The position numbers and the translations under genes were made by a program. 64,000 nucleotides of DNA from NCBI GenBank assembly GCA_902491535.1, contig CABUHS010000003.1, forward strand, positions 6,426 through 70,425, read 5' to 3'. Below are positions 9,927 through 47,331 of this stretch, piece after piece (the first letter of the stretch is position 1; the number at the start of each line of letters is the position of its first letter). The notes under the pieces were generated by a model. It searched no databases and was not told where the DNA came from. It saw nothing but the letters and a program-made list of their open reading frames with translations. Source of the stretch: an uncultured Eubacteriales bacterium. GTDB lineage: Bacteria > Bacillota > Clostridia > Oscillospirales > CAG-272.

Positions 9927-10427
9927 GTGAAAATCCTCGGTATAGATCCCGGACTGGCAATTGTCGGATACGGAGTTATAGAATATAAAAATTCAAGATT
10001 TACAACGATAGCGTACGGCTCGGTTCTTACTCAGGCACATACGCCTACCGAGGACAGGCTTGCTACGATATATTCAGATCTTAGCGAGCTTATAGAAATG
10101 TACCGACCTGAGGAAATAGCAATCGAGGAGCTTTTTTTCAATACAAACCAAAAAACTGCGATAACTGTAGCAGAGGCGCGCGGAGTTATACTTCTGTGTG
10201 CAAAGCAGCACGGACTCAGAATTTTTGAATATACACCGCTTCAGGTCAAACAGTCGGTGGTCGGATACGGACGCGCAGAGAAAAAGCAGGTTATTGAAAT
10301 GACAAAAATGATATTACAGCTTACGGAAACTCCGAAACCCGACGATACGGCGGACGCTCTTGCGATCGCGGTTTGTCACGCACATACCGGCGGAAGCAGA
10401 ATAAGCGGATATTATAATTTGAAATAA
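9927..10427 (+). CDS. ruvC: Crossover junction endodeoxyribonuclease RuvC
   Basis: ILGIDPGLAIVGYGV (catalytic Asp) and DDTADALAIAVCHA. GTG 9927 is preceded by GAAAGAGGTG. The ORF-track TTG at 9906 is less likely. Confidence 0.9.
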   Translation: MKILGIDPGLAIVGYGVIEYKNSRFTTIAYGSVLTQAHTPTEDRLATIYSDLSELIEMYRPEEIAIEELFFNTNQKTAITVAEARGVILLCAKQHGLRIFEYTPLQVKQSVVGYGRAEKKQVIEMTKMILQLTETPKPDDTADALAIAVCHAHTGGSRISGYYNLK

Positions 10428-10462
10428 CGCATTTATCCGAATATGTATGGAGGCAGATAAAA

Positions 10463-11080: not shown

Positions 11081-11108
11081 AAGTTATCCGTAATAAAGGA
11101 ATTTACAG

Positions 11109-12218: not shown

Positions 12219-12266
12219 TATAAAAAATTATAACAGTGTGTACTGAGGTACAGAAGGGACTATATA

Positions 12267-16743: not shown

Positions 16744-18345
16744 ATGAGTAAAGAACGCAGCAGTGAAAATACGAATAAAGAGGTATCTGGTATAGATACT
16801 CATAAAAGTGAAAAAAAAGAAAGCGTGTCCGACGTGCGCAAATTGAAGGCTGAAAAGGGTAAGCCGACTTCAGCGGACAGCAGAAAGCATGAAGATAAAA
16901 AACGCGAATCCGCAGAAAAGGCTTCGGATAAAAAGTCAAAGCAGGATATTTCTTCAGGCGATGAAGATCGGGATAAGAAACATGAGTCTTCCGCACCTGT
17001 AAAAGGCGGTAAGGGAGAAAGCAGAGCGCTTACGCGGACTGAGAAAAAATCCGGAAAAAGTGTAACTTCGTCGGAGACTTCCGGAAAGAATTTTATTAAG
17101 CGTTCGGTATCTGTATCTCTTGAAAAAGAGGCTCAGCGTGAGCGCGAAGCAGCGCTTGCTGGAGTCAACACATATTATATTAAAATATCAAAATATTTCC
17201 GTCGCGCCAAAACGGTCAGCGCACTGCTTCTTGCACTGTTTACTGTTGTGATGCTTGCATCGTTCAGAGATGATATAACACCGCAAAATCTGCAATATAT
17301 GCTGCGCGATCTTAATATTACAAATACAGTATATTCAAACGATTCTACTTTTACCGTATCGTACGATACGGATACGGATGCTGTATTCAGGCTTTTCCGT
17401 GATCAGCTTGCCGTGGCGGGAAAAAGCGGTTTTTCGCTTTATGCGTCATCGGGAAGTAAGGTGTTTGATGATCCGCATAACTATAAAAATCCGGCTGTGG
17501 CAAGTTCGGATTCGTGTATGATCGTATACGATCTCGGCGGAAACTATTATTCGGTATATAATTCGCTTGAAAAGCTTTCGGAGCAGTCGACGGCATATCC
17601 GATAGCAGCAGCGGCGGCTTCGGACAGCGGAATGTATGCTGTGCTTACAAGAAGCGCTGAATACAGGTCGGCGATATATGTGTATGATTCACGCGGTGGA
17701 AATACGGCGAATATTTTTAAGGATAAGCTCGTTCTTGGTATTTGTTTTGCCGAGAACGGGGAGGATATAATTGTTACGTCAGTAAACAGCAGTGAAGGAA
17801 ATATTGTCGGTGAACTTTCGGTACACAATATAAATTCCGATGTTCCGCTAATGTCGGTGACTCTTGACGGAGAACTTCCTTTGCTTGCATATGCATACGG
17901 CAGTAACGTATCGGTAATGACCGATCGCTCCCTTATTACGTATAATATGGACGGTAATCAGACATCGGTCTACAGCTACGGAAGTATATCCCCTATAACG
18001 GGCTGCATCGGAAGTACATATTCGGCTCTCGCATTTTCCTCCGGTACTGTAAACGGGCAAAGCGATATCCGCGTTGTTAACGGCGGAGAGGTGTGTATGA
18101 CCGTATCGGCTGACGGAGATGTGAAATGTTTGAGGGAATATGGGGATACAGTATATGCTTTGTGCCGCGAAGGTGTACTCAAAATAGATCCGAAAAGAGA
18201 TGAAACGTATGTATTTGAAACAGAGGGAAATCCCTGTGATATAAATATAACCGGAAATACACTGCTTGTTTCATATTATTCACATACCGATTCATATTAT
18301 TTGTCAGAGATTTTTACGGAAAAGAATAAGCTGTCACAGCAGTGA
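16744..18345 (+). CDS. Hypothetical single-pass membrane protein: K/S/E-rich cytoplasmic N-terminus, ~340-aa extracytoplasmic beta-rich domain
   Basis: RBS GGAGGG. One TM segment (VSALLLALFTVVMLASF) at about aa 160. The C-terminal region has repeating beta-strand-like segments (possibly a beta-propeller; may correspond to DUF5711, unverified). Confidence 0.65.
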   Translation: MSKERSSENTNKEVSGIDTHKSEKKESVSDVRKLKAEKGKPTSADSRKHEDKKRESAEKASDKKSKQDISSGDEDRDKKHESSAPVKGGKGESRALTRTEKKSGKSVTSSETSGKNFIKRSVSVSLEKEAQREREAALAGVNTYYIKISKYFRRAKTVSALLLALFTVVMLASFRDDITPQNLQYMLRDLNITNTVYSNDSTFTVSYDTDTDAVFRLFRDQLAVAGKSGFSLYASSGSKVFDDPHNYKNPAVASSDSCMIVYDLGGNYYSVYNSLEKLSEQSTAYPIAAAAASDSGMYAVLTRSAEYRSAIYVYDSRGGNTANIFKDKLVLGICFAENGEDIIVTSVNSSEGNIVGELSVHNINSDVPLMSVTLDGELPLLAYAYGSNVSVMTDRSLITYNMDGNQTSVYSYGSISPITGCIGSTYSALAFSSGTVNGQSDIRVVNGGEVCMTVSADGDVKCLREYGDTVYALCREGVLKIDPKRDETYVFETEGNPCDINITGNTLLVSYYSHTDSYYLSEIFTEKNKLSQQ

Positions 18346-18433: not shown

Positions 18434-19144
18434 ATGTCTGTTATTATTGATATCATAATTGCGGTTATAATTGTAATTCCGGTCATTCTCGGCATTAAGA
18501 GAGGATTTGTCAGATCGGCAATGAAGCTTGTTTCCGTTATACTTGCAATTCTTGCTGCAAATATACTTATGCCGTATATTTCACCGTTTTGCAGAGAAAA
18601 GATAATCGTACCGTATGTGAGTGAGCCTGTAAACGCGTATGTCTCTTCGGCAGTGGGCGATTCAGTGGACTCTGTAGGAGATACAGGTACGGAAAATATT
18701 TCCGCAGTTGCAGACAAAATAAAAAATGTATGCGGTACTTTCGGTATAGATATTTCCGATATAACCGATATGCTTGAAAGTTCAGTATCGGATTCAGCGC
18801 TTGAAAGTGCTGATAAGATTACCGAGAGTGTGACCGGGTATATAGTCGGCGAGATTACAAACAAGGCTTCGGATATACTCGCATTCCTGCTTGCTTTTGT
18901 CGGTTCGCTTATCGTACTCGGAATAGTTACTTTTATTATAAATGCTATATGTAAAATGCCGGTACTTAACGGTATAAACAGAACTGCAGGAGCGCTGTTC
19001 GGATTTTGCTGCGGCGGTATAGCGGCGATTGTGATCGCAAAACTGCTCATGGCTTTTATGCCGACGCTCACATCGCTGTATCCGGATGTATTTTCCGGTG
19101 CAGCCGACAAATCCTTATTTTTGAATATGCTTGCCGGCAAATAA
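18434..19144 (+). CDS. cvpA: CvpA-family membrane protein
   Basis: MSVIIDIIIAVIIVIPVILGIKRGFVRS is a typical CvpA N-terminus, and the protein has multiple TM segments. GGAG lies 6 nt before ATG 18434. The ORF-track start at 18266 overlaps the upstream gene. Confidence 0.75.
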   Translation: MSVIIDIIIAVIIVIPVILGIKRGFVRSAMKLVSVILAILAANILMPYISPFCREKIIVPYVSEPVNAYVSSAVGDSVDSVGDTGTENISAVADKIKNVCGTFGIDISDITDMLESSVSDSALESADKITESVTGYIVGEITNKASDILAFLLAFVGSLIVLGIVTFIINAICKMPVLNGINRTAGALFGFCCGGIAAIVIAKLLMAFMPTLTSLYPDVFSGAADKSLFLNMLAGK

Positions 19145-19183: not shown

Positions 19184-21607
19184 ATGGAAATGTGTTCAAG
19201 ATGTAAAAAACGTGTGGCGGTTGTATTTGTTACCCGTTTTGAAGGCGGAAAAACGATAGACGAAGGTATCTGTCTGAAATGCGCAAAGGAACTCGGAATA
19301 AAGCCTGTTGAAACTATGATGGAGAAGATGGGACTGTCTGATGAGGACCTTGACCGTATGGACAGCGAGATGAGCGGTATGCTTGAGAATTTCGGTGATG
19401 AGGATATGGGTGTTATGCCGGAGGATACGGAGTATCCCGAAGAAGATCCTGACGGTATGGACGGAGAAGAGGACAGCGGCCACGCTCCGGCTGTCGACTT
19501 CAGAAAATTCTTCGCTCCGCTTATGAAAACCGAAAGTGACAGGAAAGAAAACCCTTCCGAAGAAAAATCCGGTAAGGAAAAAAACGCGTCCGGAGGTGCA
19601 AAAAAGCAGAAACGCAAGTATCTTGGAATGTATTGCAGCGATCTTACCGGAAAGGCACGCGAGGGTAAGCTGGACAGAGTGATAGGACGCGACAGAGAGA
19701 TCGCGCGCACTGTGCAGATACTTTGCCGCCGTCAGAAGAATAACCCTTGTCTTATCGGAGAACCCGGAGTCGGTAAGACCGCCGTTGCAGAAGCTGTTGC
19801 TCAGCTTATTGTAAGTGAAGATGTGCCGTGGAAGCTTCGCGGAAAGGAAGTCTTTCTTCTCGATCTGACAGCACTGATAGCGGGAACTCAGTTCCGCGGA
19901 CAGTTTGAGAGCCGTATGAAGGGACTTATTGATGAGATTCGGGCTAACGGAAATATAATACTCGTAATTGATGAGGTTCATATGATCGCCGGAAGCGGAA
20001 ACGCTGAGGGCGGTATGAACGCGGCTAATATTCTGAAGCCTGCGCTTTCAAAGGGAGAGATTCAGGTTATCGGAGCTACGACGCTGACCGAATACCGTAA
20101 ATATATTGAAAGCGATTCAGCTCTTGAACGCCGTTTTCAGCCTATAGTGCTTGAGGAGCCTTCTATAGAAGAGTCTGTTATGATATTGCGCGGTATAAAA
20201 GGTTATTATGAAAAGTTTCACGGCATAAAAATACCAGATATGACGGTCGAGGCCGCTGTCCGTCTTTCCGAACGTTATATTACTGACAGATTTTTACCGG
20301 ATAAGGCGATCGATCTTATGGATGAGGCATCGTCCAGACTCGCGCTTTCATCTCCGGTCATAAAGGAGACAGAGGAGCTTGCAGAAGAAATACGTGCTAT
20401 AGAGGCGGAGCGCGACACTCTCGAAGCGGAGAGTACCGATTCTGATGAGGCTGAAAACGAAAAGTACCGCCGCCTTGCCGATCTGAGAACCAAGGAACTG
20501 AGTGCGCGTGAACGCATGAGCGTTATATCCGCAGAGCGTGATAAAATATTTCTGTCCGAAGAGGATATTGCCAAGGTTATTGAGATATGGACGGGCGTCC
20601 CGGCAAGTTCTATAACGGAGCATGAGTTCGCGCGTATTGATTCGCTCGGAACCAGACTGAAAGAGCATATCATAGGGCAGGACAGAGCGGTTGACGCAGT
20701 TGTTAAAGCGATAAAGAGAAACAGGGCGGGTGTATCGTCCAAGCGTAAGCCGGTGTCATTTATATTCGCAGGAAGTACCGGAGTCGGAAAGACAGAGCTT
20801 GTAAAACGGCTTGCAGCTGATCTTTTTAACTCTCCGGAGACACTTATCCGTCTTGATATGTCGGAGTTTATGGAGAAACACTCCGTTTCACGTATAATCG
20901 GTTCACCTCCCGGATATGTAGGCTACGATGACGCGGGACAGCTTACCGAAAAGATACGCCGCAAACCGTATTCTGTCGTCCTTTTCGATGAGATCGAAAA
21001 GGCGCATCCCGACGTTATGAATATCCTTTTGCAGATATTGGACGAGGGCAGGATAACAGATGCTCACGGCAAGGTGATAGGCTTCGAAAACACGGTTATA
21101 ATTATGACTACGAATGCGGGTGCAAATCTTGCGTCAAATACTCCGGGATTCGGCGCATCTGCGTATGAGCAGGAAAGCGACCGCACATTGAAGGCACTCG
21201 GAGAATTCCTGCGTCCTGAGTTTATAAACCGTGTTGATGAGATCGTAACCTTCCGTCAGCTCGACCGCGATGATTTCATTAAGATTGCCGAGCTTATGCT
21301 CGGAGAGCTTCGCGATACACTTTCTATAAAGGGAATTTCTGTATCATGGACCGCAGCAGCAGCGGCATATATTGCCGAGCATTCGTATTCACGAAAATTC
21401 GGAGCAAGAAATATGCGCAGATATGTTCAGACTCATGTTGAGGATGAGATCGCAGAGCTGTTGATTCGAGGCTACGGACAAAGCATTTCGGCTGTAAATA
21501 TTGATGTGCCTGCCGATACTTCGCAGGAGGATGCTCCGCTTTCTATCAGTCTGTCTTATTACGCTGATACGCTTGGTGACGCCGAGACCGGCGTTTCGAA
21601 AGTATGA
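19184..21607 (+). CDS. Clp/Hsp100-class double AAA+ ATPase (ClpC/ClpB-like) with a zinc-ribbon N-terminus instead of Clp_N repeats
   Basis: D1 Walker A GEPGVGKTA and Walker B ILVIDEVH. D2 Walker A GSTGVGKTE and Walker B VVLFDEIEKAH. Short coiled-coil M region. N-terminus is CSRC-x21-CLKC followed by a D/E-rich stretch. Confidence 0.9.
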   Translation: MEMCSRCKKRVAVVFVTRFEGGKTIDEGICLKCAKELGIKPVETMMEKMGLSDEDLDRMDSEMSGMLENFGDEDMGVMPEDTEYPEEDPDGMDGEEDSGHAPAVDFRKFFAPLMKTESDRKENPSEEKSGKEKNASGGAKKQKRKYLGMYCSDLTGKAREGKLDRVIGRDREIARTVQILCRRQKNNPCLIGEPGVGKTAVAEAVAQLIVSEDVPWKLRGKEVFLLDLTALIAGTQFRGQFESRMKGLIDEIRANGNIILVIDEVHMIAGSGNAEGGMNAANILKPALSKGEIQVIGATTLTEYRKYIESDSALERRFQPIVLEEPSIEESVMILRGIKGYYEKFHGIKIPDMTVEAAVRLSERYITDRFLPDKAIDLMDEASSRLALSSPVIKETEELAEEIRAIEAERDTLEAESTDSDEAENEKYRRLADLRTKELSARERMSVISAERDKIFLSEEDIAKVIEIWTGVPASSITEHEFARIDSLGTRLKEHIIGQDRAVDAVVKAIKRNRAGVSSKRKPVSFIFAGSTGVGKTELVKRLAADLFNSPETLIRLDMSEFMEKHSVSRIIGSPPGYVGYDDAGQLTEKIRRKPYSVVLFDEIEKAHPDVMNILLQILDEGRITDAHGKVIGFENTVIIMTTNAGANLASNTPGFGASAYEQESDRTLKALGEFLRPEFINRVDEIVTFRQLDRDDFIKIAELMLGELRDTLSIKGISVSWTAAAAAYIAEHSYSRKFGARNMRRYVQTHVEDEIAELLIRGYGQSISAVNIDVPADTSQEDAPLSISLSYYADTLGDAETGVSKV

Positions 21608-24600
21608 GGGACAGTAAATGGCATGAGCTGACAGCTGAACAGATTGCGAATCATTTCGGAAGCGATATAAGCCGCGGACTTAGCGTCTCCGCGGCGGCTC
21701 AGCGTTTACGTCAGGACGGAGAAAGCAGGATATATCCCGAAAACCGCGAAAAATATACGGCTAATATAAAGCATATATTGACAGATCTTACGGTTATCCT
21801 TCTTGTGTTTACTGCCGTAATTTCGGCAGCGTTCGGGCAAAGTGTCAGTATACCTGTTATAATAAGTCTTATAGTGCTGAATCTTGCAGCATGTGTCGCT
21901 GCATATCTTAAGGCTCACAGTATACTTAAGGAAACAGGTAAACGGGCAGAGCATTCTGTCAAGGTTGTCCGTGACGGACACGTTATGCTTATAAACAGCA
22001 GTCAGACGGTCTGCGGTGATGTAATATTTTTATCTGCGGGAGATACGGTTCCCGCTGATGCACGTATCATACAGTCTGAAGAGCTTACCGTTCTTCAGAC
22101 TGATGTTACCGGTGAAAAGAAACCGGTTCGTAAGCGTTCCGGCTTTGCAGAGGGACGCAGCATCGGAGCTGCACCCGAACAGCAGACAAACATGCTGTTT
22201 GCTTCATCGGTGGTTATGAGCGGAAGCGGGCGCGCTATAATATGCGCGACCTCTGAAAATACATGTATACGAAAACTCGGAAGAGCATCCGGGGACGATC
22301 TGTCCTATGAAAAACTGCGTCTGTTCAAGTTTATGCGTAGCTATAGCTCAGTATGGGGACTCTGCATGCTTGTGGCTGTTTTTGTAATTGCGGTTTTGGA
22401 TTTTATATTCGGAAGTGCCGACCGCAGTCTTTTTGACAGCTTTATAACCGCTCTTACACTTGCTGTTGCTTCTATGAGTTCGTGTTATCTTGCATTTACA
22501 TATATAGTTGTGTCTTCAGGCATTCTCGGCTTGGGAAAACGGCGCAGAGGAAATTCATCGGGTGCGCTTGTCAAAAATATAGGAAAGCTTGAGGCGGCAA
22601 AGGATATTACGGCGCTTATTGTTCCGTACAGATCGCTGATCGCTTCGGATTCTGTGAAGCTGGTGCGGGTATATGCGGCAGGTGCGGACAAGGGCGTTTC
22701 GGATCACGGTTTCAAACGGAGCTGTGTGCCGCTGCTTCGTCTTGCCGTAATTTCGACAGGACTGTACGGCGGAAACAGGCTTGTTCATAATAATCTGAGC
22801 GGTAACAATGTTTATTCGGATGATGAAGAACTTATAATATCGTATGCGACGAATCTCGGAATTTATAATCTCAGACTTGACCGTGATTTTCCTATGGCGG
22901 ATCACGTGTCTGCAGGAAACCGCAGCCGTTTTGATACGACACTATATTTTGATGGCGGAGATTTCCGGGCGGTATCGCGCGGAGACGCGGGAAGAATACT
23001 GGCATCGTGCAGCCATTACCGGGATTACTCCGGTGTTTTAAGAATGAATTCCGAAAAGCGTGATGAGCTTAGCAGATATGTGACTGCCGCCGCAAAAAAG
23101 AATTGCCGTGTAATTGCTATAGCATCTAAGAAAACACAGTATACAAATCTTCGGCGGATCGTGGCAAATCAGAGCGATCTGGTTTTTGAAGGATTTCTTG
23201 TGATAAGTGAGCCGCTGATAGAAGGTGCTGCCCGCAATATTGCTGCATGCCGTGAAGCAGGTATACGCGTGCTTATGACATGTGACAGCCGAAACGAGAC
23301 CGGTATCATAACTGCGAGATCGCTTGGCATCATATCTGATGACAGCCGTATAGTCAGCGGGGAACAGATCTCAGGTATGAAGCCGGAGATTTTCCGTATA
23401 AATATACCGCTTTACGATCTATACATAGGGCTCAGTTCCTCTCAGCTCGAAATGCTCATTTCATTTTTGCAGGCTGACGGATCGGTAGTAGGAATAGCGG
23501 CAGACAGGCTCGGACAGCTTTCCGCTATGCGCGAGGGAGATGTAGGCTTTGCTCTGCAAAGCAGTGCAGTATCGCCGTCAGGTGGAACTGTTCGTGTTCC
23601 GATTGTTTCAGGCGGAAGCGGAGAACATTCGTGTCCGGCAGATGCCGCGCTTATGTTTTATTCGGATGTTGTGCTTTATTCGCCGGACAGACGCGGATCC
23701 GGCGGCTTTAACGGTATGGTCGGAACTGTTAAAAACTCTGTTCAGATATACCGTAACATATTGCGTGTCTCATCATATCTTCTTACGGTTCAGATCGCGA
23801 GACTTGCTATTGTACTTTGGAGCGTGATTTCCGGAAATTTTGTCCTTACTCCTGTACAGGTATTATTTTCCGGACTTATCATAGATTTTGCTGCTGTATT
23901 TACGATAGCATTTCAGCCGCCGTCAACACATGTGCTGAAATACAGACAGGATGTTGATAAAAAGCTTAAAAGGCCGTTTTTCAGTAATATAAGATATGTT
24001 GTATTCGGACTTCTATGGGCGTTGGCGCTCGTTTTTTCGCCGTATATTTTAAATGCTGCCGGATTTGTATTTGCCGACGGCGAACTCGTATCCGCATCAT
24101 TTCTCGGATTCATGATAACTCAGTTTTTTGTAATGTCTGAGATAAAACGTGAACACAGCATATTTGATCCGAATATAAGATTCAGTGCGGCATCGGTACT
24201 TATAGTTCTTTTGTGTGTTGCATTTGCACTTGTCTCGATATTCGTCCCTCCGTTCGGAGTTTTGTTCGGAATCAAGATTATCGGAAGCGCAGCTGTCTCG
24301 GCAATGCTGATTCCGCCGGCACTTATGGTTATTGTGCTGGAAATCGATAAGATATTAAGGGGATATTCGCGTATAAGCAAGTATCTTGAAAAGCTTGTAT
24401 CGAAGTTCGGGGCAAAAAAACGCTTGGATGCAAAACCGAATGAGGTTGAGATCAATGTTACCGAAAAGCCGGAAACACCTGCAACGGCCGACTCTGATAC
24501 GGGATTGTTCGAAAGCTTTGACCTTGATGAATTCATTGCTTCGGCTATAGGATTGAGTGATAAACAGGAAAATAATATCGGTACGGATTCTGTTGACGGT

Positions 24601-24879
24601 GGCTTTGATTCATCCAGCGGCGAGGATGAGGATTCTGCAACCGGTGCGGATAATGGAGAAACTGCGGTATCAGGAGAAAATATCACCCCGGAAAATATCG
24701 GGGTTTCCGATACTGAAGCTATTTCGGCGCCGGACGAAAATAAAGCATCTTCCGCGGATATTTCCGGAAATGAGGATATTTTCGATGCGTCGGGCGATAC
24801 GGCTGATGATCCTTTTGAATACGGAATAGGAAATGATATCATAGAAAGTATTTTTTCTGTACGTAAGGATGACGAATGA
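21604..24879 (+). CDS. P-type ATPase homologue lacking all catalytic motifs (intact ORF, predicted non-pumping), with an acidic ~170-aa C-terminal tail
   Basis: Cation-ATPase N-terminal domain (LTAEQIANHFGSDISRGLS) and colinear similarity to the genuine P-type ATPase at 44689-47331. TGES is TGEK, PEGL is absent, DKTGT is PYRSL, TGDN is TCDS and GDGVNDAP is ADRLGQLS. The start overlaps the upstream stop (ATGA). Confidence 0.85.
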   Translation: MRDSKWHELTAEQIANHFGSDISRGLSVSAAAQRLRQDGESRIYPENREKYTANIKHILTDLTVILLVFTAVISAAFGQSVSIPVIISLIVLNLAACVAAYLKAHSILKETGKRAEHSVKVVRDGHVMLINSSQTVCGDVIFLSAGDTVPADARIIQSEELTVLQTDVTGEKKPVRKRSGFAEGRSIGAAPEQQTNMLFASSVVMSGSGRAIICATSENTCIRKLGRASGDDLSYEKLRLFKFMRSYSSVWGLCMLVAVFVIAVLDFIFGSADRSLFDSFITALTLAVASMSSCYLAFTYIVVSSGILGLGKRRRGNSSGALVKNIGKLEAAKDITALIVPYRSLIASDSVKLVRVYAAGADKGVSDHGFKRSCVPLLRLAVISTGLYGGNRLVHNNLSGNNVYSDDEELIISYATNLGIYNLRLDRDFPMADHVSAGNRSRFDTTLYFDGGDFRAVSRGDAGRILASCSHYRDYSGVLRMNSEKRDELSRYVTAAAKKNCRVIAIASKKTQYTNLRRIVANQSDLVFEGFLVISEPLIEGAARNIAACREAGIRVLMTCDSRNETGIITARSLGIISDDSRIVSGEQISGMKPEIFRINIPLYDLYIGLSSSQLEMLISFLQADGSVVGIAADRLGQLSAMREGDVGFALQSSAVSPSGGTVRVPIVSGGSGEHSCPADAALMFYSDVVLYSPDRRGSGGFNGMVGTVKNSVQIYRNILRVSSYLLTVQIARLAIVLWSVISGNFVLTPVQVLFSGLIIDFAAVFTIAFQPPSTHVLKYRQDVDKKLKRPFFSNIRYVVFGLLWALALVFSPYILNAAGFVFADGELVSASFLGFMITQFFVMSEIKREHSIFDPNIRFSAASVLIVLLCVAFALVSIFVPPFGVLFGIKIIGSAAVSAMLIPPALMVIVLEIDKILRGYSRISKYLEKLVSKFGAKKRLDAKPNEVEINVTEKPETPATADSDTGLFESFDLDEFIASAIGLSDKQENNIGTDSVDGGFDSSSGEDEDSATGADNGETAVSGENITPENIGVSDTEAISAPDENKASSADISGNEDIFDASGDTADDPFEYGIGNDIIESIFSVRKDDE

Positions 24880-24923: not shown

Positions 24924-24965
24924 AGTACGGTGTTAGCTGCAAGGCTGATGCCGTACTGTTTTTTA
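24924..24965 (+). terminator. Putative rho-independent terminator after the ATPase-like gene
   Basis: 14-bp stem (with G-U pairs) agtacggtgttagc / gctgatgccgtact, followed by gttttttag. Confidence 0.6.
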
Positions 24966-25074: not shown

Positions 25075-25149
25075 GGCCTGTTGGTCAAGAGGCTAAGACG
25101 CCGCCCTCTCACGGCGGAAACAGGGGTTCGATTCCCCTACGGGTCACCA
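25075..25149 (+). tRNA. tRNA-Glu (anticodon CUC), CCA encoded
   Basis: Manual cloverleaf: acceptor GGCCTGT/ACGGGTC (two G-U pairs), anticodon stem CCGCC/GGCGG with loop CTCTCAC, T arm AGGGG-TTCGATT-CCCCT, discriminator A plus CCA. Confidence 0.85.
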
Positions 25150-25152: not shown

Positions 25153-25187
25153 AAGATCCGCCTGATTATGTCAGGCGGATCTTTTTG
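25153..25187 (+). terminator. Rho-independent terminator after tRNA-Glu
   Basis: Stem aagatccgcctga / tcaggcggatctt, 5-nt loop, followed by a T-run. Confidence 0.85.
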
Positions 25188-25258
25188 CATAGGCATCTGA
25201 GGTCCGAAAAGGACTGTTATATAAAAAACGGTTTATTACCGGGAAACGGAGAACAAAA

Positions 25259-26534: not shown

Positions 26535-27653
26535 ATGCAGAAAAAGATAATTTCACTTCTTGCAGCGGCAGCGGCTTTAATTTCTACAGTATCGCTTGTG
26601 TCATGCAGAAAGTCATTAAAAAAGGCTCCTGAAGGTTTTACCGAGCCGTTTAACTATGATCTTAGTGAGTATGTAAAACTCGGAGAATATAAGGGTATTA
26701 AATATACTCCTTTTGATACATCAGCTACAGATGACCAGATACAGGCGAAGCTTGCCTCAGAGCTTAAAGAACATACTACGGCAGAGATAGTAACTGACCG
26801 CGGCGCAAAGATGGGCGATGTTCTTACCATAAATTATTCCGGAACCATTGACGGGGAGCAGTTTGAAGGCGGTACAGCTACCGAACAGACGATAACGCTG
26901 GGAGAGAGCGGTTATATTTCAGGTTTTGACGAAGGTCTTGTTGGTGTAAAGGCGGGAGAGTCGGTAACTCTTCATCTGAAATTTCCCAATCCGTATAATC
27001 CTAAGCCTGAATTTTCCGGTAAGGATGTAGACTTCCTTGTACTTGTTCGCTTTGTAAGGAGCGTAGTTGTTCCGGAACTTACTGATGAGTTTGTTGCTTC
27101 GGTAGGTGAGTACAAATCTGTTGAAGATTATATGGCTTATATTACTTCTCTTGTTGAGGAAGAAAATAAATCAAAAGCTGAATTGCAGAAAATTTCAGAT
27201 GTATGGGGCGCGATTATTGAAAACACAGAGGTTGTCAGTGTGCCGCAGGAAGAAATTAACGCAAGTATTCAGAATATGATCGATACATATACCGGATATG
27301 CGACATATTACGACAAAACGCTTGATGAATTCCTTTCAGAAGCGTTAGGTATGGATTATGATACTTTCTATGCTCAGGTTAAGGAATATTCTGAAAAGTC
27401 GGTTGAGCAGGAGCTTATTCTGTATTCGATAGTTCATGCTGAGAATATAAAACTCACTGATAAGGATTATGACGAGGGACTGAAACATCTTGCTGAAGAA
27501 AACAATACTACTGTAGAGGAACTTGAAAAGCAGAACGATTTTGAGCTTCTTTGGGAGAATGTTATGTGGGATAAAGTAATGACATTCCTTACTGACAATG
27601 CTGTAGCTGTTGAGGCTGATACATCCGCTTCGGACACGTCAGCCGAAAGCTGA
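26535..27653 (+). CDS. Lipoprotein with trigger-factor-like FKBP PPIase and C-terminal chaperone-arm domains
   Basis: Signal peptide with lipobox LVS-C (aa 21-24). PPIase region GDVLTINYSGTIDGEQFEGG...GYISGFDEGLVGVKAGE...PELTDEFV resembles trigger factor. No ribosome-binding N-domain. Confidence 0.75.
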   Translation: MQKKIISLLAAAAALISTVSLVSCRKSLKKAPEGFTEPFNYDLSEYVKLGEYKGIKYTPFDTSATDDQIQAKLASELKEHTTAEIVTDRGAKMGDVLTINYSGTIDGEQFEGGTATEQTITLGESGYISGFDEGLVGVKAGESVTLHLKFPNPYNPKPEFSGKDVDFLVLVRFVRSVVVPELTDEFVASVGEYKSVEDYMAYITSLVEEENKSKAELQKISDVWGAIIENTEVVSVPQEEINASIQNMIDTYTGYATYYDKTLDEFLSEALGMDYDTFYAQVKEYSEKSVEQELILYSIVHAENIKLTDKDYDEGLKHLAEENNTTVEELEKQNDFELLWENVMWDKVMTFLTDNAVAVEADTSASDTSAES

Positions 27654-27736: not shown

Positions 27737-29929
27737 TTAGTGAATAGTATTTATATCTATATCGAACATAGATTTTGCAGAGTTAAGCAAAGTTTTATGT
27801 TCCCGGTCTTCAAGAGACGGATCGCTTGAAAGAAGTTCTCTTGCTGCCTGTGTAGCGTTTTGTGTCAGCATTTCGTCTGCTATACCGGCAATTATGTCTG
27901 TATCAAATGTTCCGTGCTGTCTCGCTGTTCCGGATGCATGCGGGAAAAAGTCTCCGGGTCCGCGCAGCTCGAGATCTTTTTGCGCAATAGCATATCCGTC
28001 ATTTGAGTTTTTCATAACTGTAAGACGCTTTCGTGCATTTTCGGAACGGCAGTCGGATACCAGAACACAGTATGATTTTGCTGTTCCGCGTCCTACACGT
28101 CCTCGTAGCTGATGAAGCTGAGACAGCCCGAATCTTTCCGCATTTTCGATAATTATGAGCGTAGCGTTAGGTACGTTTACACCGACCTCTATAACGGTCG
28201 TTGATACAAGTATCTTGGTCTTACCCTCAGCAAAAGCACGCATAGCGGCTTCTTTGTCATTCGGTTTCATTTTTCCGTGGACGTATCCGACAGGGATATC
28301 CGGGAAGATTTGCTCGGCGAGAAGCTTTGCGGTTTCGGTGACATTTTTCGGAGGAAGTTCTGTATTTTCTTCATCATCGTCAACAATATTTCCTCCTGAT
28401 ACAGGACGGACAAGATTTCCGAGATACTCATCAGATGATTCGGAAGCGGTATCTGAGCGGTCAACTGCCGGGCATATAACATATACCTGATGACCTTCTT
28501 CCACATGCTTTCGCATAAAGGCGTATAGCCTTTCACGGTAGCTTTCACCTACTGCAAAGGTGTCTGTCTTTTGTCTGCCGGGCGGCAGCTCATCGAGCGA
28601 GGAAACCGACAGATCTCCGTACAGTATAAATGCGAGTGTTCGCGGAATCGGGGTGGCACTCATGACAAGAATATGAGGAGAAGGAGTGTTGTCGGTTTGT
28701 TCTGCAGTATTTTTTTCAGCGAGCGATGTCCGTTGCATTACGCCGAAGCGATGCTGCTCATCAGTTATGACAAGTCCGAGTTTTTTGAAGTTTACATCCG
28801 GTGAAAGAAGCGCATGTGTTCCTATTATAAGATCTGTTTTTCCTGTTTCCAGGTTGGAGGTTATTTTTACACGTGCGCTCTTTTTTGTCGAGCCGGTAAG
28901 CAGTGCAGCCTTTATTCCGAGTTTTTGAAAAAGCGGAAACAGTTCATCGTAGTGCTGTACGGCGAGTATTTCTGTAGGCGCCATGAGAGCCGCCTGAGTT
29001 CCGTTTTGTACAGCAATGTATATAGCTGCTGCTGCGCAGACGGTCTTTCCGCTGCCGACGTCTCCGGTCAGAATACGGCTCATGGGTGAGTTTTTTTGTT
29101 TGCTGCACATATCGGATGCGATCTCATTAACAGCGCGGCTTTGTGCGCCGGTAAATTCGAATTTCAGACAGGACGTGAAAGGAGTCATATCCGGGATATC
29201 CATAGGATATGCTTTCCGGCAGTCGATATACTGTTTTGACAGTCCTGCACTGATCGCAAACAAGAATATTCTTTCAAAAGCGAAGCGCCGCATTGCAGCG
29301 GCAGATTCCTTAGTATCTGCCGGATCGTGTATCATTCGAATGGAGTCGGGGAGTGACGGCAGACTGCATTTTTCCCGTATTGAACGCGGTATAATATCAT
29401 CGTATTCGGTCAGAAATTTTCCGCGTATGGCTGCATGTATAAAGGAGGACATAAGTTTTTGCGATATACCTGCGGTCAGAGGGTATACCGGAACGATATC
29501 GGGCAACACTGAAATATCCGAACAAGGCTCAAAGACAGGGGATGTAAGCTCCGGTCTGCCTGATGCATACGATAGTTTTCCCCAAAAGCGGAAGCTTGCG
29601 CCGACATGGAATATATCTTTTACATAAGGTTGATTGAAGAATACTACAGAACATGTACCGCTGTCGTCATAGGCAGAAAATTTAGTTATGTTTTTTCTGT
29701 TTTTAAGCTGCGCAGAACGAGGAGCAGTTGCGACTGTAAGAATAAACGCACCGACCGTGCCGTCGGGGCATCCGAGCAGATTCAGTATATTTCCCCTGTT
29801 TTGATATCCGCGGGGGAAATGATATAAAAGTTCTTTTACCGTTGTTATACCAAGCTTTTCGAGTGCTTTAGCCCGTGTCGCGCCGATTCCGGGTACAAAA
29901 CTTATAGGTGTGTTTGCCCTTGTCTCCAT
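27737..29929 (-). CDS. recG: ATP-dependent DNA helicase RecG
   Basis: Walker A GDVGSGKT, DEQHRFG box, QLRGRVGRG motif, N-terminal wedge domain. The start is moved to ATG 29929 (METRANTPISF); the ORF-track extension to 30073 has no support. Confidence 0.9.
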   Translation of the reverse strand: METRANTPISFVPGIGATRAKALEKLGITTVKELLYHFPRGYQNRGNILNLLGCPDGTVGAFILTVATAPRSAQLKNRKNITKFSAYDDSGTCSVVFFNQPYVKDIFHVGASFRFWGKLSYASGRPELTSPVFEPCSDISVLPDIVPVYPLTAGISQKLMSSFIHAAIRGKFLTEYDDIIPRSIREKCSLPSLPDSIRMIHDPADTKESAAAMRRFAFERIFLFAISAGLSKQYIDCRKAYPMDIPDMTPFTSCLKFEFTGAQSRAVNEIASDMCSKQKNSPMSRILTGDVGSGKTVCAAAAIYIAVQNGTQAALMAPTEILAVQHYDELFPLFQKLGIKAALLTGSTKKSARVKITSNLETGKTDLIIGTHALLSPDVNFKKLGLVITDEQHRFGVMQRTSLAEKNTAEQTDNTPSPHILVMSATPIPRTLAFILYGDLSVSSLDELPPGRQKTDTFAVGESYRERLYAFMRKHVEEGHQVYVICPAVDRSDTASESSDEYLGNLVRPVSGGNIVDDDEENTELPPKNVTETAKLLAEQIFPDIPVGYVHGKMKPNDKEAAMRAFAEGKTKILVSTTVIEVGVNVPNATLIIIENAERFGLSQLHQLRGRVGRGTAKSYCVLVSDCRSENARKRLTVMKNSNDGYAIAQKDLELRGPGDFFPHASGTARQHGTFDTDIIAGIADEMLTQNATQAARELLSSDPSLEDREHKTLLNSAKSMFDIDINTIH

Positions 29930-30104
29930 GAGTATATCCTTTCTGTATATGGCGTTTTCAGCGGCTTTCTCATTTTTAATTATACTACACTCATCTTTCT
30001 GTGTCAAACCGTATTTGGCAAAATATACAGGAAAGCAGTTACAATAAGAACCCGACCCGCAGGTCACAATCATACATTGTGGGCGGGTACCCCGGAACCT
30101 CGTT

Positions 30105-30194: not shown

Positions 30195-31301
30195 TTATCC
30201 TGCGGTTTTTTCGATAATGGTTATTCCTGAAGCAGGTAAAGATGTCTGCTCGCAGATTATTTCGGTTATTTGTGCTACTTCATTGGCAAGCAGTCCATCG
30301 CTTGCAACAATAACTGTTGCACTGCTGTCGCTTACAACGGCAATACAGTCCTCAAATCCTTTGGCTTTTACAAGCGATTCAATATTTGACTCCTGTTCTA
30401 TCTGAGCGGCGATCTTAGACATGCTTTGAAGTGCGCTGTCTTTGCTTTCCTGGAGAGCATCTTCGCTGTCTACTACAAGCTGTAAAACTTCGAGAGATTC
30501 GTCACGCGCTCTGCGGCGGTTTACGGCGGCGCTTGAAAAATAAGCTTCATCACCGTTCTGTGCTGCATTCGGATCGTTTCCGTCTGCCGGAGCGCCTACT
30601 GCAGATGAACCGTCATCAATGGGGGGGACGTCAGTACCGCGGTTAAACCCTCCGGTCAGAGTGTGATTTATTACAAGCGCACCGCATATAAGTGCAAGAG
30701 ATGCGACTACGATCGCATTTTTCTTTCGGAAATGCATTTTTCCGAAAATTCCTTTAACAGAGCCGAGATTTAGTTTTTTCTTTATGTCGTCAAGAACTGT
30801 CTGATCGGATACATCAAGTTTTAATTCTCCTGACGGAGAGGAATTGAAATTATCTGATGATGATACAGTTTTTTTTGCAGCTCCGAGTGTTATCTCCGAA
30901 AATTCAGATTTTTTCAGAGCCTTTCTTGCGGACGCAGAGTTGTTTTCGGGAAGCGGCATTATTTTTTCGAGACTTTTTGAGGACCGTATGTCGGATATTC
31001 CGAATGACCGGACATTATTTTTTATAGGATTATCCTTAGCTTCATTTAATGTTTTAGTAGCGGAACAGCTTTCAGATTTGATATCTTTGCCTGTTTCCTG
31101 TTTTTCTTCTGATACAATCGGATTTATTTGGCAAGCTGATTTTTTATCAGTGCCTGATGTTGTACCGTAAATATTTTCTGTATCGGCACAGTCACAGTTC
31201 ATTTCCGGTTTATTTCCGGAATTTATTTCGCTGCGGTCAAGTGTAAGCTTTTTTTCCGTACTGTTGCCGGAAGCTTTTATAATCGTCATATCGTTTAGCA
31301 T
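30195..31301 (-). CDS. SpoIIIAH-like membrane protein with a long low-complexity N-terminal extension
   Basis: The C-terminal ~110 aa (YFSSAAVNRRRARDESLEVL...LVKAKGFEDCIAVVSD..ATVIV...ITIIEK) parallel B. subtilis SpoIIIAH (YRLDLEDARSKE...LIKTQGYEDALVNAEG). One TM segment (AIVVASLALICGALVI). Start is uncertain (31301 or 31289). Confidence 0.65.
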   Translation of the reverse strand: MLNDMTIIKASGNSTEKKLTLDRSEINSGNKPEMNCDCADTENIYGTTSGTDKKSACQINPIVSEEKQETGKDIKSESCSATKTLNEAKDNPIKNNVRSFGISDIRSSKSLEKIMPLPENNSASARKALKKSEFSEITLGAAKKTVSSSDNFNSSPSGELKLDVSDQTVLDDIKKKLNLGSVKGIFGKMHFRKKNAIVVASLALICGALVINHTLTGGFNRGTDVPPIDDGSSAVGAPADGNDPNAAQNGDEAYFSSAAVNRRRARDESLEVLQLVVDSEDALQESKDSALQSMSKIAAQIEQESNIESLVKAKGFEDCIAVVSDSSATVIVASDGLLANEVAQITEIICEQTSLPASGITIIEKTAG

Positions 31302-44665: not shown

Positions 44666-44688
44666 AACATATGAAAAGGAGAGGGAAA

Positions 44689-47331
44689 ATGAAAGAGTAT
44701 CTGTCAACGGCTGACGAGGTAATAAAAAATCTCGGAACCTCTGAGCAGGGCCTCGGGGAATCAGAGGCTGAAAAACGTCTCGTAAAACACGGAGCTAATA
44801 AGCTCGCCGAAGGTAAAAAGGAATCTTTACTTCATAAGTTTTTAGGGGAATTTGCCGATCCGATGATAATTATACTTATCGTTGCGGCGGTAATATCCGG
44901 AATAACATCGGTATATTCTCATGAATCATTTGCAGACGTTATAATTATTATGGCTGTCGTTATAATAAACGCCGTACTCGGCGTTGTGCAGGAGAGTAAG
45001 GCAGAGGCGGCTATAGAGGCGCTTCAGCAGATAGCAGCCGCCACGTCAAAGGTGATACGCGGAGGAAAACGAATTACGGTAAAAAGTGAGGAACTTGTTC
45101 CGGGTGATATCATATTGCTTGAAGCCGGAGACTCAGTCCCTGCTGACGCCCGGATAATTGAAAGTGCAAGCCTGCGTATAGAGGAGGCGGCGCTTACCGG
45201 TGAGTCGGTTCCTGCGAGTAAGACAGAGAGCGTATTGAGTGCTGACGGAAACGGTGATGTTTCGCTCGGAGACCGTAATAATATGGCGTATATGGGCTGT
45301 ACTGTAGTTTATGGACGCGGAACAGCAGTGGTTACTGCTACCGGAATGGATACCGAAATGGGTAAAATAGCAGATGCGCTTTCAAATGCAAAGGAAGAGC
45401 AGACACCTCTTCAGAAAAAGCTTTCGCAGCTCAGCAAGATACTGAGTGTTCTTGTTGTCGGAATCTGTGCGGTTATATTTGCGGTTGATGTAATAAGAAG
45501 TTATCCGAATATCAGCGGAGAAGGCATGCTTGACACCTTTATGGTTGCAGTCAGCCTTGCGGTTGCCGCCATTCCCGAAGGCCTTGCGGCTGTTGTAACT
45601 ATCGTTCTGTCTATCGGCGTAACAAATATGTCAAAGCGTAACGCGATAATAAGAAAACTTACTTCTGTTGAAACTCTCGGATGTACACAGGTAATATGCT
45701 CTGATAAGACCGGAACGCTTACCCAAAATAAAATGACGGTTGTTGAACATTTTTCAGATGACGACGGACGGACCGCGGTAGCAATGGCAGTATGTTCAGA
45801 TGCAAAGCTCGGCGACGGAGGAATTGCGGTCGGAGAACCGACCGAATGTGCGCTTGTAAACGATGCGCATGCGCTTGGTCTTACAGATAAGGTAAACGGA
45901 TATGTTCGTATAGGCGAAGCCCCGTTTGATTCTATGAGAAAGATGATGTCGGTTGTCTGTCGGGGCAGCGACGGTGAGATCGTACAGTTTACAAAGGGCG
46001 CGCCCGATGAGATAATTTCGAGATGTTCGCATGCGCTTATCGGCGGAAATATTGTAGTTATGACAGAGAAGATCCGTGCGGATATTCTTGCTGCGAATAA
46101 ATCGATGGCTGACCGTGCGCTGCGGGTACTGTGTGCGGCGGAGCGTCGGTTTGATCTTCCTCCTGAATCTTTTGATGCAGATGATCTTGAAAAAGAGCTT
46201 TGTTATATCGGACTTTCCGGTATGATAGATCCTGTGCGCGAAGAAGCTAAGGCTGCTGTTGAGGAATGCCGCGGAGCAGGAATGCGCGTTGTAATGATAA
46301 CCGGAGATAATAAAGATACGGCGGTTGCGATCGCAAGCCAGCTCGGTATACTTGAAAACGGTACTGAGGCTATAACCGGATCCATGCTGAACGGAATCAG
46401 TGACGAGCAGCTTGCTAAGGATATAACAAAATATTCTGTATATGCGCGCGTTCAGCCTGAGCATAAGGTCCGCATTGTCAATGCATGGAAGTCCCGCGGA
46501 TATATTACCGCTATGACCGGAGACGGAGTTAATGATGCACCGTCCATAAAGAGTGCTGATATCGGTGTGGGCATGGGAATTACCGGAACGGACGTTACTA
46601 AAAATGTTGCCGGTATGGTACTTGCCGACGATAATTTTGCTACGATCGTTTCGGCGGTCGAAGAAGGACGCCGCATTTATGACAATATCCGTAAGTCAAT
46701 ACAGTTCCTCCTGTCTTCGAACCTTGCAGAAGTTCTCTCGATATTTTTTGCAACAATGCTCGGATTTACAATACTTAAACCGGTGCATCTTCTCTGGATA
46801 AACCTTATAACCGACTGTCTGCCCGCTCTTGCTCTCGGTATGGAGAAGAGCGAAAAGGATATAATGCGGCATGAGCCGAGAAAATCAAACGACGGTATTT
46901 TTGCCGGGGGTATGGGAATAGATGTTGCATTTCAGGGTATACTCATCACGGTAATCACGCTTGTATCGTATTTTATCGGTCATTTTATAGAATCAGGCCG
47001 TTTTGAGGCGGTTAACAGTGCCGACGGAATGACAATGGCATTTTTGACACTTTCGCTTGTCGAGATATTCCATTCCTTCAATATGCGTTCGCGCCGCGGA
47101 TCTGTTTTCGGAATGCATAGTCAGAATAAATGGCTTTGGATGTCTATGGCAGCTTCGCTGATTCTTACGACAGCAGTTATTTATATTCCCCCGCTTCGGT
47201 CTGCATTTGGATTTGAATTGATTTCGCTTGCCGAATATCTGGTGGCAATTGCTCTTGCAGTTTTGATAATACCGATAATAGAGGTTGTGAAGCTTATTCA
47301 GCGAAAGGTATGCAAAGAAAAAAAGGATTGA
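44689..47331 (+). CDS. P-type cation-transporting ATPase (P2-type, Ca2+/Mn2+-ATPase-like)
   Basis: All canonical motifs are present: TGES, PEGL, ICSDKTGTLT, KGAPD, MITGDN, GDGVNDAP. AAGGAGAGGG precedes ATG 44689; the ORF-track start at 44671 lies inside the RBS. Confidence 0.9.
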   Translation: MKEYLSTADEVIKNLGTSEQGLGESEAEKRLVKHGANKLAEGKKESLLHKFLGEFADPMIIILIVAAVISGITSVYSHESFADVIIIMAVVIINAVLGVVQESKAEAAIEALQQIAAATSKVIRGGKRITVKSEELVPGDIILLEAGDSVPADARIIESASLRIEEAALTGESVPASKTESVLSADGNGDVSLGDRNNMAYMGCTVVYGRGTAVVTATGMDTEMGKIADALSNAKEEQTPLQKKLSQLSKILSVLVVGICAVIFAVDVIRSYPNISGEGMLDTFMVAVSLAVAAIPEGLAAVVTIVLSIGVTNMSKRNAIIRKLTSVETLGCTQVICSDKTGTLTQNKMTVVEHFSDDDGRTAVAMAVCSDAKLGDGGIAVGEPTECALVNDAHALGLTDKVNGYVRIGEAPFDSMRKMMSVVCRGSDGEIVQFTKGAPDEIISRCSHALIGGNIVVMTEKIRADILAANKSMADRALRVLCAAERRFDLPPESFDADDLEKELCYIGLSGMIDPVREEAKAAVEECRGAGMRVVMITGDNKDTAVAIASQLGILENGTEAITGSMLNGISDEQLAKDITKYSVYARVQPEHKVRIVNAWKSRGYITAMTGDGVNDAPSIKSADIGVGMGITGTDVTKNVAGMVLADDNFATIVSAVEEGRRIYDNIRKSIQFLLSSNLAEVLSIFFATMLGFTILKPVHLLWINLITDCLPALALGMEKSEKDIMRHEPRKSNDGIFAGGMGIDVAFQGILITVITLVSYFIGHFIESGRFEAVNSADGMTMAFLTLSLVEIFHSFNMRSRRGSVFGMHSQNKWLWMSMAASLILTTAVIYIPPLRSAFGFELISLAEYLVAIALAVLIIPIIEVVKLIQRKVCKEKKD

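Follow-up and report, generated by a model that had tools for sequence, protein, structure and literature searches.

A P2-type ATPase homologue without catalytic motifs and its genetic linkage to clpE in Clostridia

A stretch of 64,000 nucleotides (nt) from an uncultured Eubacteriales bacterium (GenBank assembly GCA_902491535.1, contig CABUHS010000003.1, positions 6,426 to 70,425), referred to as the window in the following, carries a block of four genes on the forward strand that encode a DUF5711 protein, a CvpA protein, a ClpE-type unfoldase, and a P2-type ATPase homologue without catalytic motifs. The last one, called here the pseudo-pump, is the subject of this report. The aspartyl-phosphate cycle is the defining property of P-type ATPases. 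The window also encodes a genuine P2A-type pump, which served as comparator. An earlier note on this DNA, made from the sequence, had placed the start of this comparator at position 44689, which is possible, but an in-frame ATG at 44671, 6 codons ahead, is equally usable and yields a protein of 886 amino acids (aa). The positions of all features are given in Table 1.

Table 1. Features of the pseudo-pump locus and of the comparator pump, with positions in the window
Feature	aa	Position	Strand	Remarks
DUF5711 single-pass membrane protein		16744..18345	+	First gene of the DUF5711-CvpA-ClpE-pseudo-pump block
CvpA (Colicin_V family) polytopic membrane protein		18434..19144	+	40 nt upstream of ClpE
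ClpE-type double AAA+ unfoldase	807 aa	19184..21607	+	Zinc finger, AAA+ domains; directly upstream of the pseudo-pump
Pseudo-pump, P2-type ATPase homologue without catalytic motifs	1091 aa	21604..24879	+	ATG start, unbroken open reading frame
A (actuator) domain core	115-235	21946..22308	+	Most constrained part of the pseudo-pump; dN/dS 0.015
TGES to TGEK (VTGEKKP)	168-174	22105-22125	+	Pairwise and multiple alignment
M4 segment, AAIPEGLAAVV to ASMSSCYLAFT	289-299	22468..22500	+	Alignments, model
Phosphorylation site CSDKTGT to IVPYRSL, LIVPYRSLIASD	338-349	22615..22650	+	Pro341 at the position of the catalytic Asp; alignments
N-domain remnant	366-535	22699..23208	+	Includes KGAP to RGDA
KGAP to RGDA	458-465	22975-22998	+	Alignments
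Second half of the P domain		23209..23703	+	TGD to TCD, GDGVNDAP to ADRLGQLS, disordered insert of about 25 aa (654-678)
TGD to TCD	558-567	23275-23304	+	Alignments
GDGVNDAP to ADRLGQLS	632-648	23497-23547	+	Alignments
M5-M6		23704..23913	+	Signature Q730-x-A-R733 (M5), G757-x3-D761 (M6)
Acidic disordered tail	926-1091 (166 aa)	24379..24876	+	Subclade-specific; dN/dS 0.31-0.35
Tail motif 1, LFE(S/N)FDL(D/E)xFI, LFESFDLDEFIASAIG	968-983	24505-24552	+	Subclade conservation
Tail motif 2, C-terminal, E(F/Y)xIG(N/S)(D/E)II(E/D)SIFS, FEYGIGNDIIESIFSV	1071-1086	24814-24861	+	Subclade conservation
Intrinsic terminator, 15-bp stem and T run		24924..24957	+	Just 3' of the pseudo-pump; closes the transcription unit
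Stand-alone tRNA-Glu(CTC)		25075-25149	+	Follows the pseudo-pump terminator, ahead of the PFK gene
Genuine P2A-type pump, comparator		44671..47331	+	All motifs intact

Sequence alignment, domain models, and predicted structure agree that the pseudo-pump is a full-length homologue of the P-type ATPases. A single BLASTP alignment extends from end to end between the pseudo-pump and the in-window pump (44689-47328), with 21% identity over 944 columns and an E value of 5e-41. Three Pfam domains exceed their gathering scores, Cation_ATPase_N (aa 6-74), E1-E2_ATPase (aa 115-312), and Cation_ATPase_C (aa 747-917). The AlphaFold2 model, calculated from an alignment of 39 sequences, reached a predicted local distance difference test score (pLDDT) of 75 and a predicted template modelling score (pTM) of 0.72. 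It contains 10 transmembrane helices and folded A, P (phosphorylation), and N (nucleotide-binding) domains; disorder was predicted for aa 393-402 in the N-domain region, for aa 654-678 in an insert of the P domain, and for the tail from aa 942 to 1091. A Foldseek comparison of this model with the PDB found P2- and P3-type pumps exclusively, with SPCA1 (best E value, 9e-46), LMCA1, and SERCA2b at the top. The best fold matches were 7yai, 6zhh, 8iwp, and 9evc, E1 states gave the best superpositions (target-normalised TM-score up to 0.75), and by sequence the nearest solved protein is LMCA1, the Ca2+-ATPase of Listeria (9euq/6zhf; E value, 5e-34). The pseudo-pump has the architecture of a type II P-type ATPase, i.e., an N-terminal segment, the A domain between transmembrane helices M2 and M3, the P and N domains between M4 and M5, and 10 transmembrane helices in total. 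The earlier note had described it as a full-length homologue with preserved 10-helix and A-P-N architecture in an intact open reading frame of 1091 aa, and these points hold.

Comparison with the E1-E2_ATPase, Hydrolase, and Cation_ATPase_C profiles, as that note had suggested, gave matches for the first and the last but not for Hydrolase. The Pfam models PF00702 (Hydrolase), HAD, and PF13246 all matched the in-window pump but had no match in the pseudo-pump, and PF12710 had no match in the pseudo-pump either. On the pseudo-pump, the NCBIfam pump models (Mg2+, PMR1-type, SERCA-type, and PMCA-type) scored 120-144 bits, compared to cutoffs of 500-800 (for instance, TIGR01522 with 141 bits and a cutoff of 798, and TIGR01116 with 123 bits and a cutoff of 703). 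Even the general P-type model TIGR01494 reached 45.5 bits, which is below its cutoff of 62.3.

The motif replacements listed in the earlier note were all reproduced in the pairwise and the multiple alignments (Table 1), and they are not peculiar to this protein. In an alignment of 166 family members, the column of the phosphorylated Asp is occupied by Pro in 73 members, Cys in 19, Ser in 14, and Arg in 7, followed by other residues, with Asp in 4 of the 166. A DKTG-like phosphorylation site occurs in none of the 166, as the 4 carriers of an Asp are also devoid of the DKTG context. The TGES columns are variable, with Asn (57), Glu (22), and Val (15) leading in the Glu column and Lys (44) and Arg (23) in the Ser column. 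Likewise, DKTGT, TGES, PEGL, KGAP, TGD, and GDGVND are missing from every relative of this kind, termed dead in contrast to live pumps, in a motif table of 60 sequences. In the P domain of the 166-member alignment, no polar residue is conserved throughout the family, only glycines. Because the phosphorylated Asp, the TGES loop, the HAD motifs for Mg2+ and phosphate, and the PEGL of M4 are gone, the pseudo-pump should be unable to perform the Post-Albers cycle or ATP-driven transport. The claim of the earlier note that no aspartyl-phosphate can be formed and that the protein is not a pump is supported from sequence, with Pro341 at the position of the Asp and the HAD motifs gone.

Several apparent exceptions disappeared when the alignment columns were considered. 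DKTG pattern matches in two proteins (P0021 and P0124) were located outside of the phosphorylation-site column; the site of P0021 is LIVPREAAFSIR, and neither protein is among the 4 Asp carriers. TGES and PEGL pattern matches in two others (L006 and L009) were not at the motif columns. A candidate intermediate form downstream of ClpE (L093) had a weak PF00702 match, yet its site reads IIVPKEG, which makes it dead. An unrelated P-type ATPase in a metagenome-assembled genome (MAG) of the Acutalibacteraceae (L041, 9226-11877) retains DKTGT, KGAP, and TGD, with TGES changed to TGDC, PEGL to PEVL, and GDGVND to GSSVSD, and may represent an independent, partial pump degeneration.

Evaluation of a possible binding of ATP needs to consider the nucleotide pocket of the N domain. 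The pseudo-pump of the window possesses F443 as the adenine-stacking Phe, R459 at the position of the KGAP Lys, and R502 at that of SERCA R560. Across the family, the equivalents of SERCA F487, K515, and R560 are kept in 47%, 45%, and 60% of the members, respectively, and the stretch equivalent to K492 is deleted. A family-wide nucleotide-binding pocket was rejected for this reason, and ATP binding is probably not a property of the whole family.

The ion site in the membrane domain has been remodeled differently. SERCA numbering was mapped via well-known SERCA motifs with the in-window pump as a bridge, so that the following correspondences are those of an alignment and not of measured distances. 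Of the ion-site set of the P2A Ca2+-ATPases, composed of Glu in M4, Asn and Glu in M5, and Asn and Asp in M6, the pseudo-pump of the window keeps the Asp in M6 alone. This Asp (D761, SERCA D800 column) is present in 166 of 166 members. A striking feature peculiar to the family is that the E771 column in M5 is basic in all of them, with Arg in 151 members and Lys in the remaining 15. In addition, the N796 column in M6 contains Gly in 165 members, and the N768 column contains Gln in 129. In M4, the family consensus reads A-S-M-S-E-F, with the Glu in 129 of the 166 members and a Ser in the subclade of the present protein, and the M4 helix of the model remains broken at the old PEGL position (helices 276-289 and 292-308). 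The statement of the earlier note that every ion-site motif had been replaced was therefore too strong, since the M6 Asp is universal and the M4 Glu, although lost here, is kept by most relatives. From the alignment, the Arg or Lys of M5 may pair with the buried Asp of M6 in a built-in salt bridge and fill the former cation site, which would hold the membrane domain permanently in an "occupied" state.

The family is deep. A word-indexed search found a gradual series of relatives without PF00702, with identities of 97% to about 22%, and genuine pumps started below them. A profile search that covered 1.84 billion cluster representatives yielded, among the 150 best matches listed, at least about 135 dead clusters (50% identity) with scores from 1283 to about 475 bits, and live pumps appeared from about 475 bits. 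When 43 dead and 43 live sequences were arranged in a neighbour-joining tree, the dead proteins formed one clade; two sequences within this clade were flagged as live, but the flag rests on a DKTG-like match outside the phosphorylation-site column. All named records of the family come from MAGs of Oscillospiraceae, Ruminococcaceae, Eubacteriales, or Clostridia, and the members are labelled in the databases as "cation-transporting P-type ATPase" or "Ca2+-transporting ATPase." No relative retains DKTGT or GDGVNDAP, a test that the earlier note had proposed for recent decay. The loss of the motifs is old and not a recent decay, as indicated by a large monophyletic family under selection.

The ratio of nonsynonymous to synonymous substitution rates (dN/dS, calculated according to Nei and Gojobori) was 0.13 between the pseudo-pump and its 84%-identical orthologue L081, with a dS of 0.68, and 0.16 with the 97%-identical orthologue L083. 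By region, it was 0.015-0.04 in the A domain, 0.09-0.20 in P and N, 0.10-0.13 in M5-M10, and 0.31-0.35 in the tail; the neighbouring genes gave 0.06-0.08 for ClpE and 0.015 for PFK. The ratio of conservation in the dead set to that in the live set, in which the live set covers more phyla than the dead one, was lowest in the P domain (0.42-0.44) and higher in the N-terminal segment (0.94), the A domain (0.81), the N domain (0.72), and the transmembrane helices (0.68-0.77). Residues that are invariant in the family are mainly structural glycines, aspartates, and arginines of the A domain, which are common to live pumps, too; they include G138, D139, G146, D152, R154, and G207. Homology to an enzyme family, loss of the catalytic residues, and purifying selection, the three features of a pseudoenzyme, are thus combined in the pseudo-pump, which is very probably a conserved, non-catalytic member of its family. 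The dN/dS calculation had also been suggested in the earlier note, which named frameshifts or missing expression, as signs of a pseudogene, among the refuting results. A decaying pseudogene, or an artefact of the annotation, could explain the loss of all catalytic motifs, but 1091 codons are intact here, the reading frame is intact in every relative, the dN/dS values indicate purifying selection, and the deep monophyletic family has invariant residues of its own, which makes this explanation hardly credible.

The acidic C-terminal tail, described before as a D/E/S-rich extension of about 170 aa, is present with 166 aa, of which 25% are D or E and 11% are S, but it is no feature of the family, as 19 of 165 members have 1000 or more aa. 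Within the subclade, whose members reach down to about 47% identity, the tail is hypervariable, with the exception of two short motifs (Table 1) that coincide with the sole helices predicted in it. Docking motifs within flexible linkers typically show this pattern, and the two motifs may be of this kind.

The gene upstream of the pseudo-pump has the characteristics of the ClpE subfamily, namely, an N-terminal zinc finger, two AAA+ modules, and no Clp_N domain. The finger has the arrangement C4-x2-C7-x22-C30-x2-C33 and is followed by a long acidic linker; AAA, AAA_lid_9, AAA_2, and ClpB_D2-small matched in Pfam, and Clp_N was not among the matches listed. Both pairs of Walker A and B motifs are conserved across 60 ClpE orthologues, as is a loop [P/A/V/I/L]-G-F, in which the G-F is at least 95% conserved. 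This loop sits at the putative position of the VGF loop of ClpC that docks to ClpP. With its Walker pairs and the G-F loop conserved, this ClpE looks functional.

The stop codon of clpE overlaps the start codon of the pseudo-pump gene (ATGA), and no obvious Shine-Dalgarno sequence precedes this start, which is consistent with translational coupling of the pseudo-pump to clpE, as it appears from the sequence. There is no terminator between both genes, a strong one comes immediately after the pseudo-pump, and the two genes are probably co-transcribed and co-expressed. With DUF5711, CvpA, and the pseudo-pump, clpE is flanked by three membrane-protein genes. DUF5711 is composed of a K/E/S-rich, basic, disordered N terminus of about 150 aa, one transmembrane helix, and a beta-rich outer domain of about 350 aa; nothing on its function was found in the open-access literature, in which one unrelated paper mentions the name only. 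The listed open reading frame of CvpA from the TTG at 18266 is over-extended, with a plausible start at the ATG at 18434. No CtsR operator was found near 19184, and the sole match in the window, at 40235 with 3 mismatches, is at chance level; an assignment of the clpE operon to the class III heat-shock (CtsR) regulon was rejected because no operator was found upstream. The PADLOC defence models gave no match for the pseudo-pump, DUF5711, or CvpA and generic AAA+ matches only for ClpE, and a link to anti-phage defence was rejected on this result.

The linkage to clpE extends far beyond the window. Of the 26 loci that include DNA upstream of the pseudo-pump gene, 24 have clpE immediately ahead of it on the same strand, with pseudo-pump identities down to 23%. 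These loci include a sample drawn from the ClpE side, five orthologues with 61-64% identity chosen regardless of their neighbours, and in all five a dead P-type ATPase homologue is encoded directly downstream. The distances between the two genes in 15 loci are -4, -4, -4, -4, 0, 0, 6, 25, 40, 44, 50, 57, 60, 63, and 85 nt. The ATGA overlap is found in the window and in three relatives, and overlap or abutment (-4, 0, or 6 nt) in 7 of the 15 loci, which suggests coupled expression. The order ecfA-ecfA'-ecfT-truA-DUF5711-cvpA-clpE-pseudo-pump recurs in related loci, with varying genes downstream; wherever a related locus reaches far enough upstream, DUF5711 lies ahead of ClpE and the pseudo-pump, and CvpA is positioned between DUF5711 and ClpE in nearly all of these loci, with no CvpA gene called in L089. 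The earlier note had recommended an examination of whether the pseudo-pump and the Clp-like gene upstream occur together; their co-occurrence is strikingly conserved, and the genetic coupling of the pseudo-pump to ClpE is near-obligate.

Some further observations concern the surroundings of these genes. In L092, a dead ATPase (7313-10108, +) downstream of ClpE is arranged tail-to-tail with a live ATPase that has a Hydrolase domain (10257-12301, -), the sole dead/live adjacency seen. In the Oscillospiraceae MAG L010, a small HAD_2 phosphatase gene (9324-10001) overlaps by 4 nt the start of a dead ATPase (9998-11332), which is cut by the contig end. Two long proteins, P0263 (1682 aa) and P0264 (1608 aa), were considered as ClpE fusions and rejected, because in both of them one polypeptide joins two complete live P-type ATPases in tandem, HMA_2 with a heavy-metal-type pump first and a P2-type pump behind it. 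Within the window, the tRNA-Glu(CTC) gene downstream of the pseudo-pump has its own extended -10 promoter-like sequence, TGATATAAT, at about 25040 and its own terminator at about 25157-25190. The gene at 26535-27653 (+) encodes a trigger-factor homologue (TIGR00115, 197 bits compared to a cutoff of 180) with FKBP_C and Trigger_C but no ribosome-binding N domain; it begins with a lipoprotein-type signal peptide ending in LVSC, and its product is apparently an extracytoplasmic, trigger-factor-like peptidyl-prolyl isomerase. RecG (27737-30073, -) adjoins a SpoIIIAH-like gene (30195-31301, -), which indicates that the organism is an endospore former or the descendant of one.

To understand the biological meaning of the pseudo-pump, these data can be combined. 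The earlier note had suggested a membrane scaffold or receptor, which may hold in general terms, and the data now suggest, more precisely, a connection to ClpE, which had not been proposed as the function. We tentatively propose, with somewhat less than an even chance of being correct, that the pseudo-pump, embedded in the membrane, acts as a structural partner of the ClpE unfoldase, possibly together with ClpP. A P2-type, Ca2+-ATPase-like paralogue has very probably turned into a pseudoenzyme that keeps a folded body, made up of the membrane domain with its 10 helices and the A/P/N headpiece, with the former cation site presumably plugged by the built-in pair of Arg or Lys in M5 and Asp in M6. 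This body would serve as anchor or adaptor, either by localising ClpE to the membrane or by offering it substrates associated with the membrane, and the two short conserved helices of the tail might provide extra docking motifs in the present subclade only. A more far-reaching version, in which the pseudo-pump and ClpE, with or without ClpP, form a new bacterial machine for membrane-protein quality control, the dead body providing an intramembrane site for recognition or dislocation, ClpE the energy, and DUF5711 and CvpA further components, is unlikely. Such a machine would be comparable in concept to Derlin with p97 or to a P5A-type dislocase that leaves ATP hydrolysis to another protein. Several observations weigh against a partnership with ClpE. 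Two of the 26 loci, L003 and L010, carry a pseudo-pump without ClpE; in L003, the genes ahead of the pseudo-pump are those of an ABC-2 permease and a PBP-like protein. No fusion protein of ClpE and pseudo-pump was found among the matches of the profile search. The pseudo-pump diverges far faster than ClpE (49% versus 76% identity to L001), which is unusual for an obligate partner, though the interface residues could be few. The tail motifs are confined to one subclade and cannot be a family-wide interface. Finally, the linkage could be general synteny, with the whole block from ecfA to clpE being conserved in the lineage.

The main rival follows from these points: the pseudo-pump may be a stand-alone membrane scaffold, receptor, or sensor unrelated to ClpE, its adjacency reflecting gene order inherited in one lineage. 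The synteny of the complete upstream block (ecf, truA, DUF5711, cvpA, and clpE), which makes the linkage not peculiar to ClpE and the pseudo-pump, the two members without ClpE, and the strongly different evolutionary rates would all agree with this explanation. However, synteny breaks just downstream of the pseudo-pump and not at the junction with ClpE, which persists in 24 of 26 loci down to 23% identity, and 7 of 15 junctions overlap or abut, so that a function independent of ClpE has to be taken seriously but is rather doubtful. A transport-related activity without phosphoenzyme, such as the passive passage of cations or protons or a gated channel via the site in M4, M5, and M6, may be considered on the basis of a membrane domain conserved at about 0.7 of the live-pump level, an invariant M6 Asp, an M4 Glu in 129 of 166 members, and an M4 that is unwound in the model. 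This is improbable, however, since the invariant Arg or Lys of M5 facing the M6 Asp would cancel the charge of the site and fill it, the changes of N796 to Gly and N768 to Gln remove further ligands, the present subclade has also lost the M4 Glu, and no energy coupling is left. Regulation of the genuine P-type ATPases of the same cell through hetero-oligomers is slightly less probable again. A live P2A pump is encoded in the same genome, dead and live genes are tail-to-tail in L092, and the solved MgtA structures are dimers according to the PDB titles (8uy7/8uy8), but linkage to a live pump is not conserved, with 20 kb between the genes here and adjacency once in about 26 loci, and no conserved dimer interface was identified. 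That the protein is still an ATPase or phosphatase using non-canonical residues, or a switch that binds ATP, would be compatible with F443, R459, and R502 of this particular protein; the restriction of these residues to 45-60% of the family, the deleted K492 segment, the missing family-wide polar residue in the P domain, and the TIGR01494 score below the cutoff leave this explanation very unlikely.

The near-obligate linkage to ClpE offers a concrete lead, open to experiment, towards a partner or adaptor at the membrane for a Clp unfoldase that has no other known adaptors. Irrespective of the partner, a deep bacterial family that dropped the aspartyl-phosphate chemistry and was nevertheless kept by selection indicates that the pump fold can also serve a second purpose, without catalysis, and the invariant Arg/Lys-Asp pair may be regarded as a natural experiment on the stabilisation of an empty ion site. 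Hundreds of genes for a "cation-transporting P-type ATPase" or "Ca2+-transporting ATPase" in gut Clostridia are most likely mis-annotated, which distorts the reconstruction of metabolism and ion homeostasis in abundant gut organisms.

The closest relatives by sequence and fold are the P2A Ca2+-ATPases LMCA1, SPCA1, and SERCA. The pseudo-pump shares with them the domain order, the 10 transmembrane helices, the core of the A domain, and the M6 Asp but differs by the loss of the phosphorylated Asp, TGES, PEGL, KGAP, TGD, and GDGxND, by Arg or Lys instead of the M5 Glu and Gly instead of the M6 Asn, by the disordered insert of about 25 aa in the P domain, and by scores far below the cutoffs of the equivalog models such as TIGR01522. 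It is P2(A)-type by descent and is not to be filed as a cation pump, because every catalytic criterion of membership fails. A built-in basic residue in M5 is also present in some live pumps, Arg655 with Asp684 in the plant H+-ATPase AHA2 and Lys791 in the gastric H+,K+-ATPase. In these pumps, the basic side chain in M5 likewise faces an acidic ion-site residue in M6 or nearby and fills part of the cation site; there, however, it tunes the stoichiometry in an active cycle, while R733-D761, paired by alignment, probably only stabilises an empty site. A CtsR operator upstream of clpE is typical of Bacilli, although not strictly defining. Compared to ClpE of Bacillus and Lactococcus, the clpE gene described here has no upstream CtsR operator, encodes a long acidic linker after the zinc finger, and resides within a membrane-protein gene block; classical ClpE is not known to have a membrane partner.

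Searches of the open-access literature found no bacterial family of catalytically dead P-type ATPases, no link between a P-type ATPase and ClpE, and nothing relevant on the FUPA families, and a 2023 review of the P-type superfamily mentions neither inactive or degenerate members nor TMEM94. Dead membrane enzymes that cooperate with an AAA+ ATPase are represented by the pseudoproteases Derlin and iRhom, which work with p97/Cdc48. The P5A-ATPase has a role in protein quality control of the endoplasmic reticulum (ER) (PMC11541931). With these systems, the pseudo-pump would share the concept only, a dead or repurposed membrane enzyme fold combined with an unfoldase in membrane-protein quality control. 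It is not homologous to rhomboids, the P5A dislocase is catalytically active, and a handling of protein substrates by the pseudo-pump is by analogy only. For human TMEM94, a structural study reports no ATPase activity, Mg2+ binding, or phosphorylation cycle (PMC12134183); this is disputed, and the protein has been argued to be an ER Mg2+ ATPase (PMC13322241). TMEM94 resembles the pseudo-pump by its 10 transmembrane helices, the A/P/N-like cytoplasmic domains, and the missing TGES, a likeness at the level of architecture, but it is eukaryotic and keeps a candidate Asp, D417. TMEM94 is not known to be linked to an AAA+ protein. In Plasmodium, the P4-ATPase-like domain of the guanylate cyclase GC-beta is degenerate (PMC6592433). 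This apicomplexan domain is fused to a cyclase, is of P4 (flippase) ancestry, and is eukaryotic, whereas the pseudo-pump is free-standing, of P2 type, and bacterial. The nearest known analogues of the pseudo-pump, TMEM94 and GC-beta, are eukaryotic proteins.

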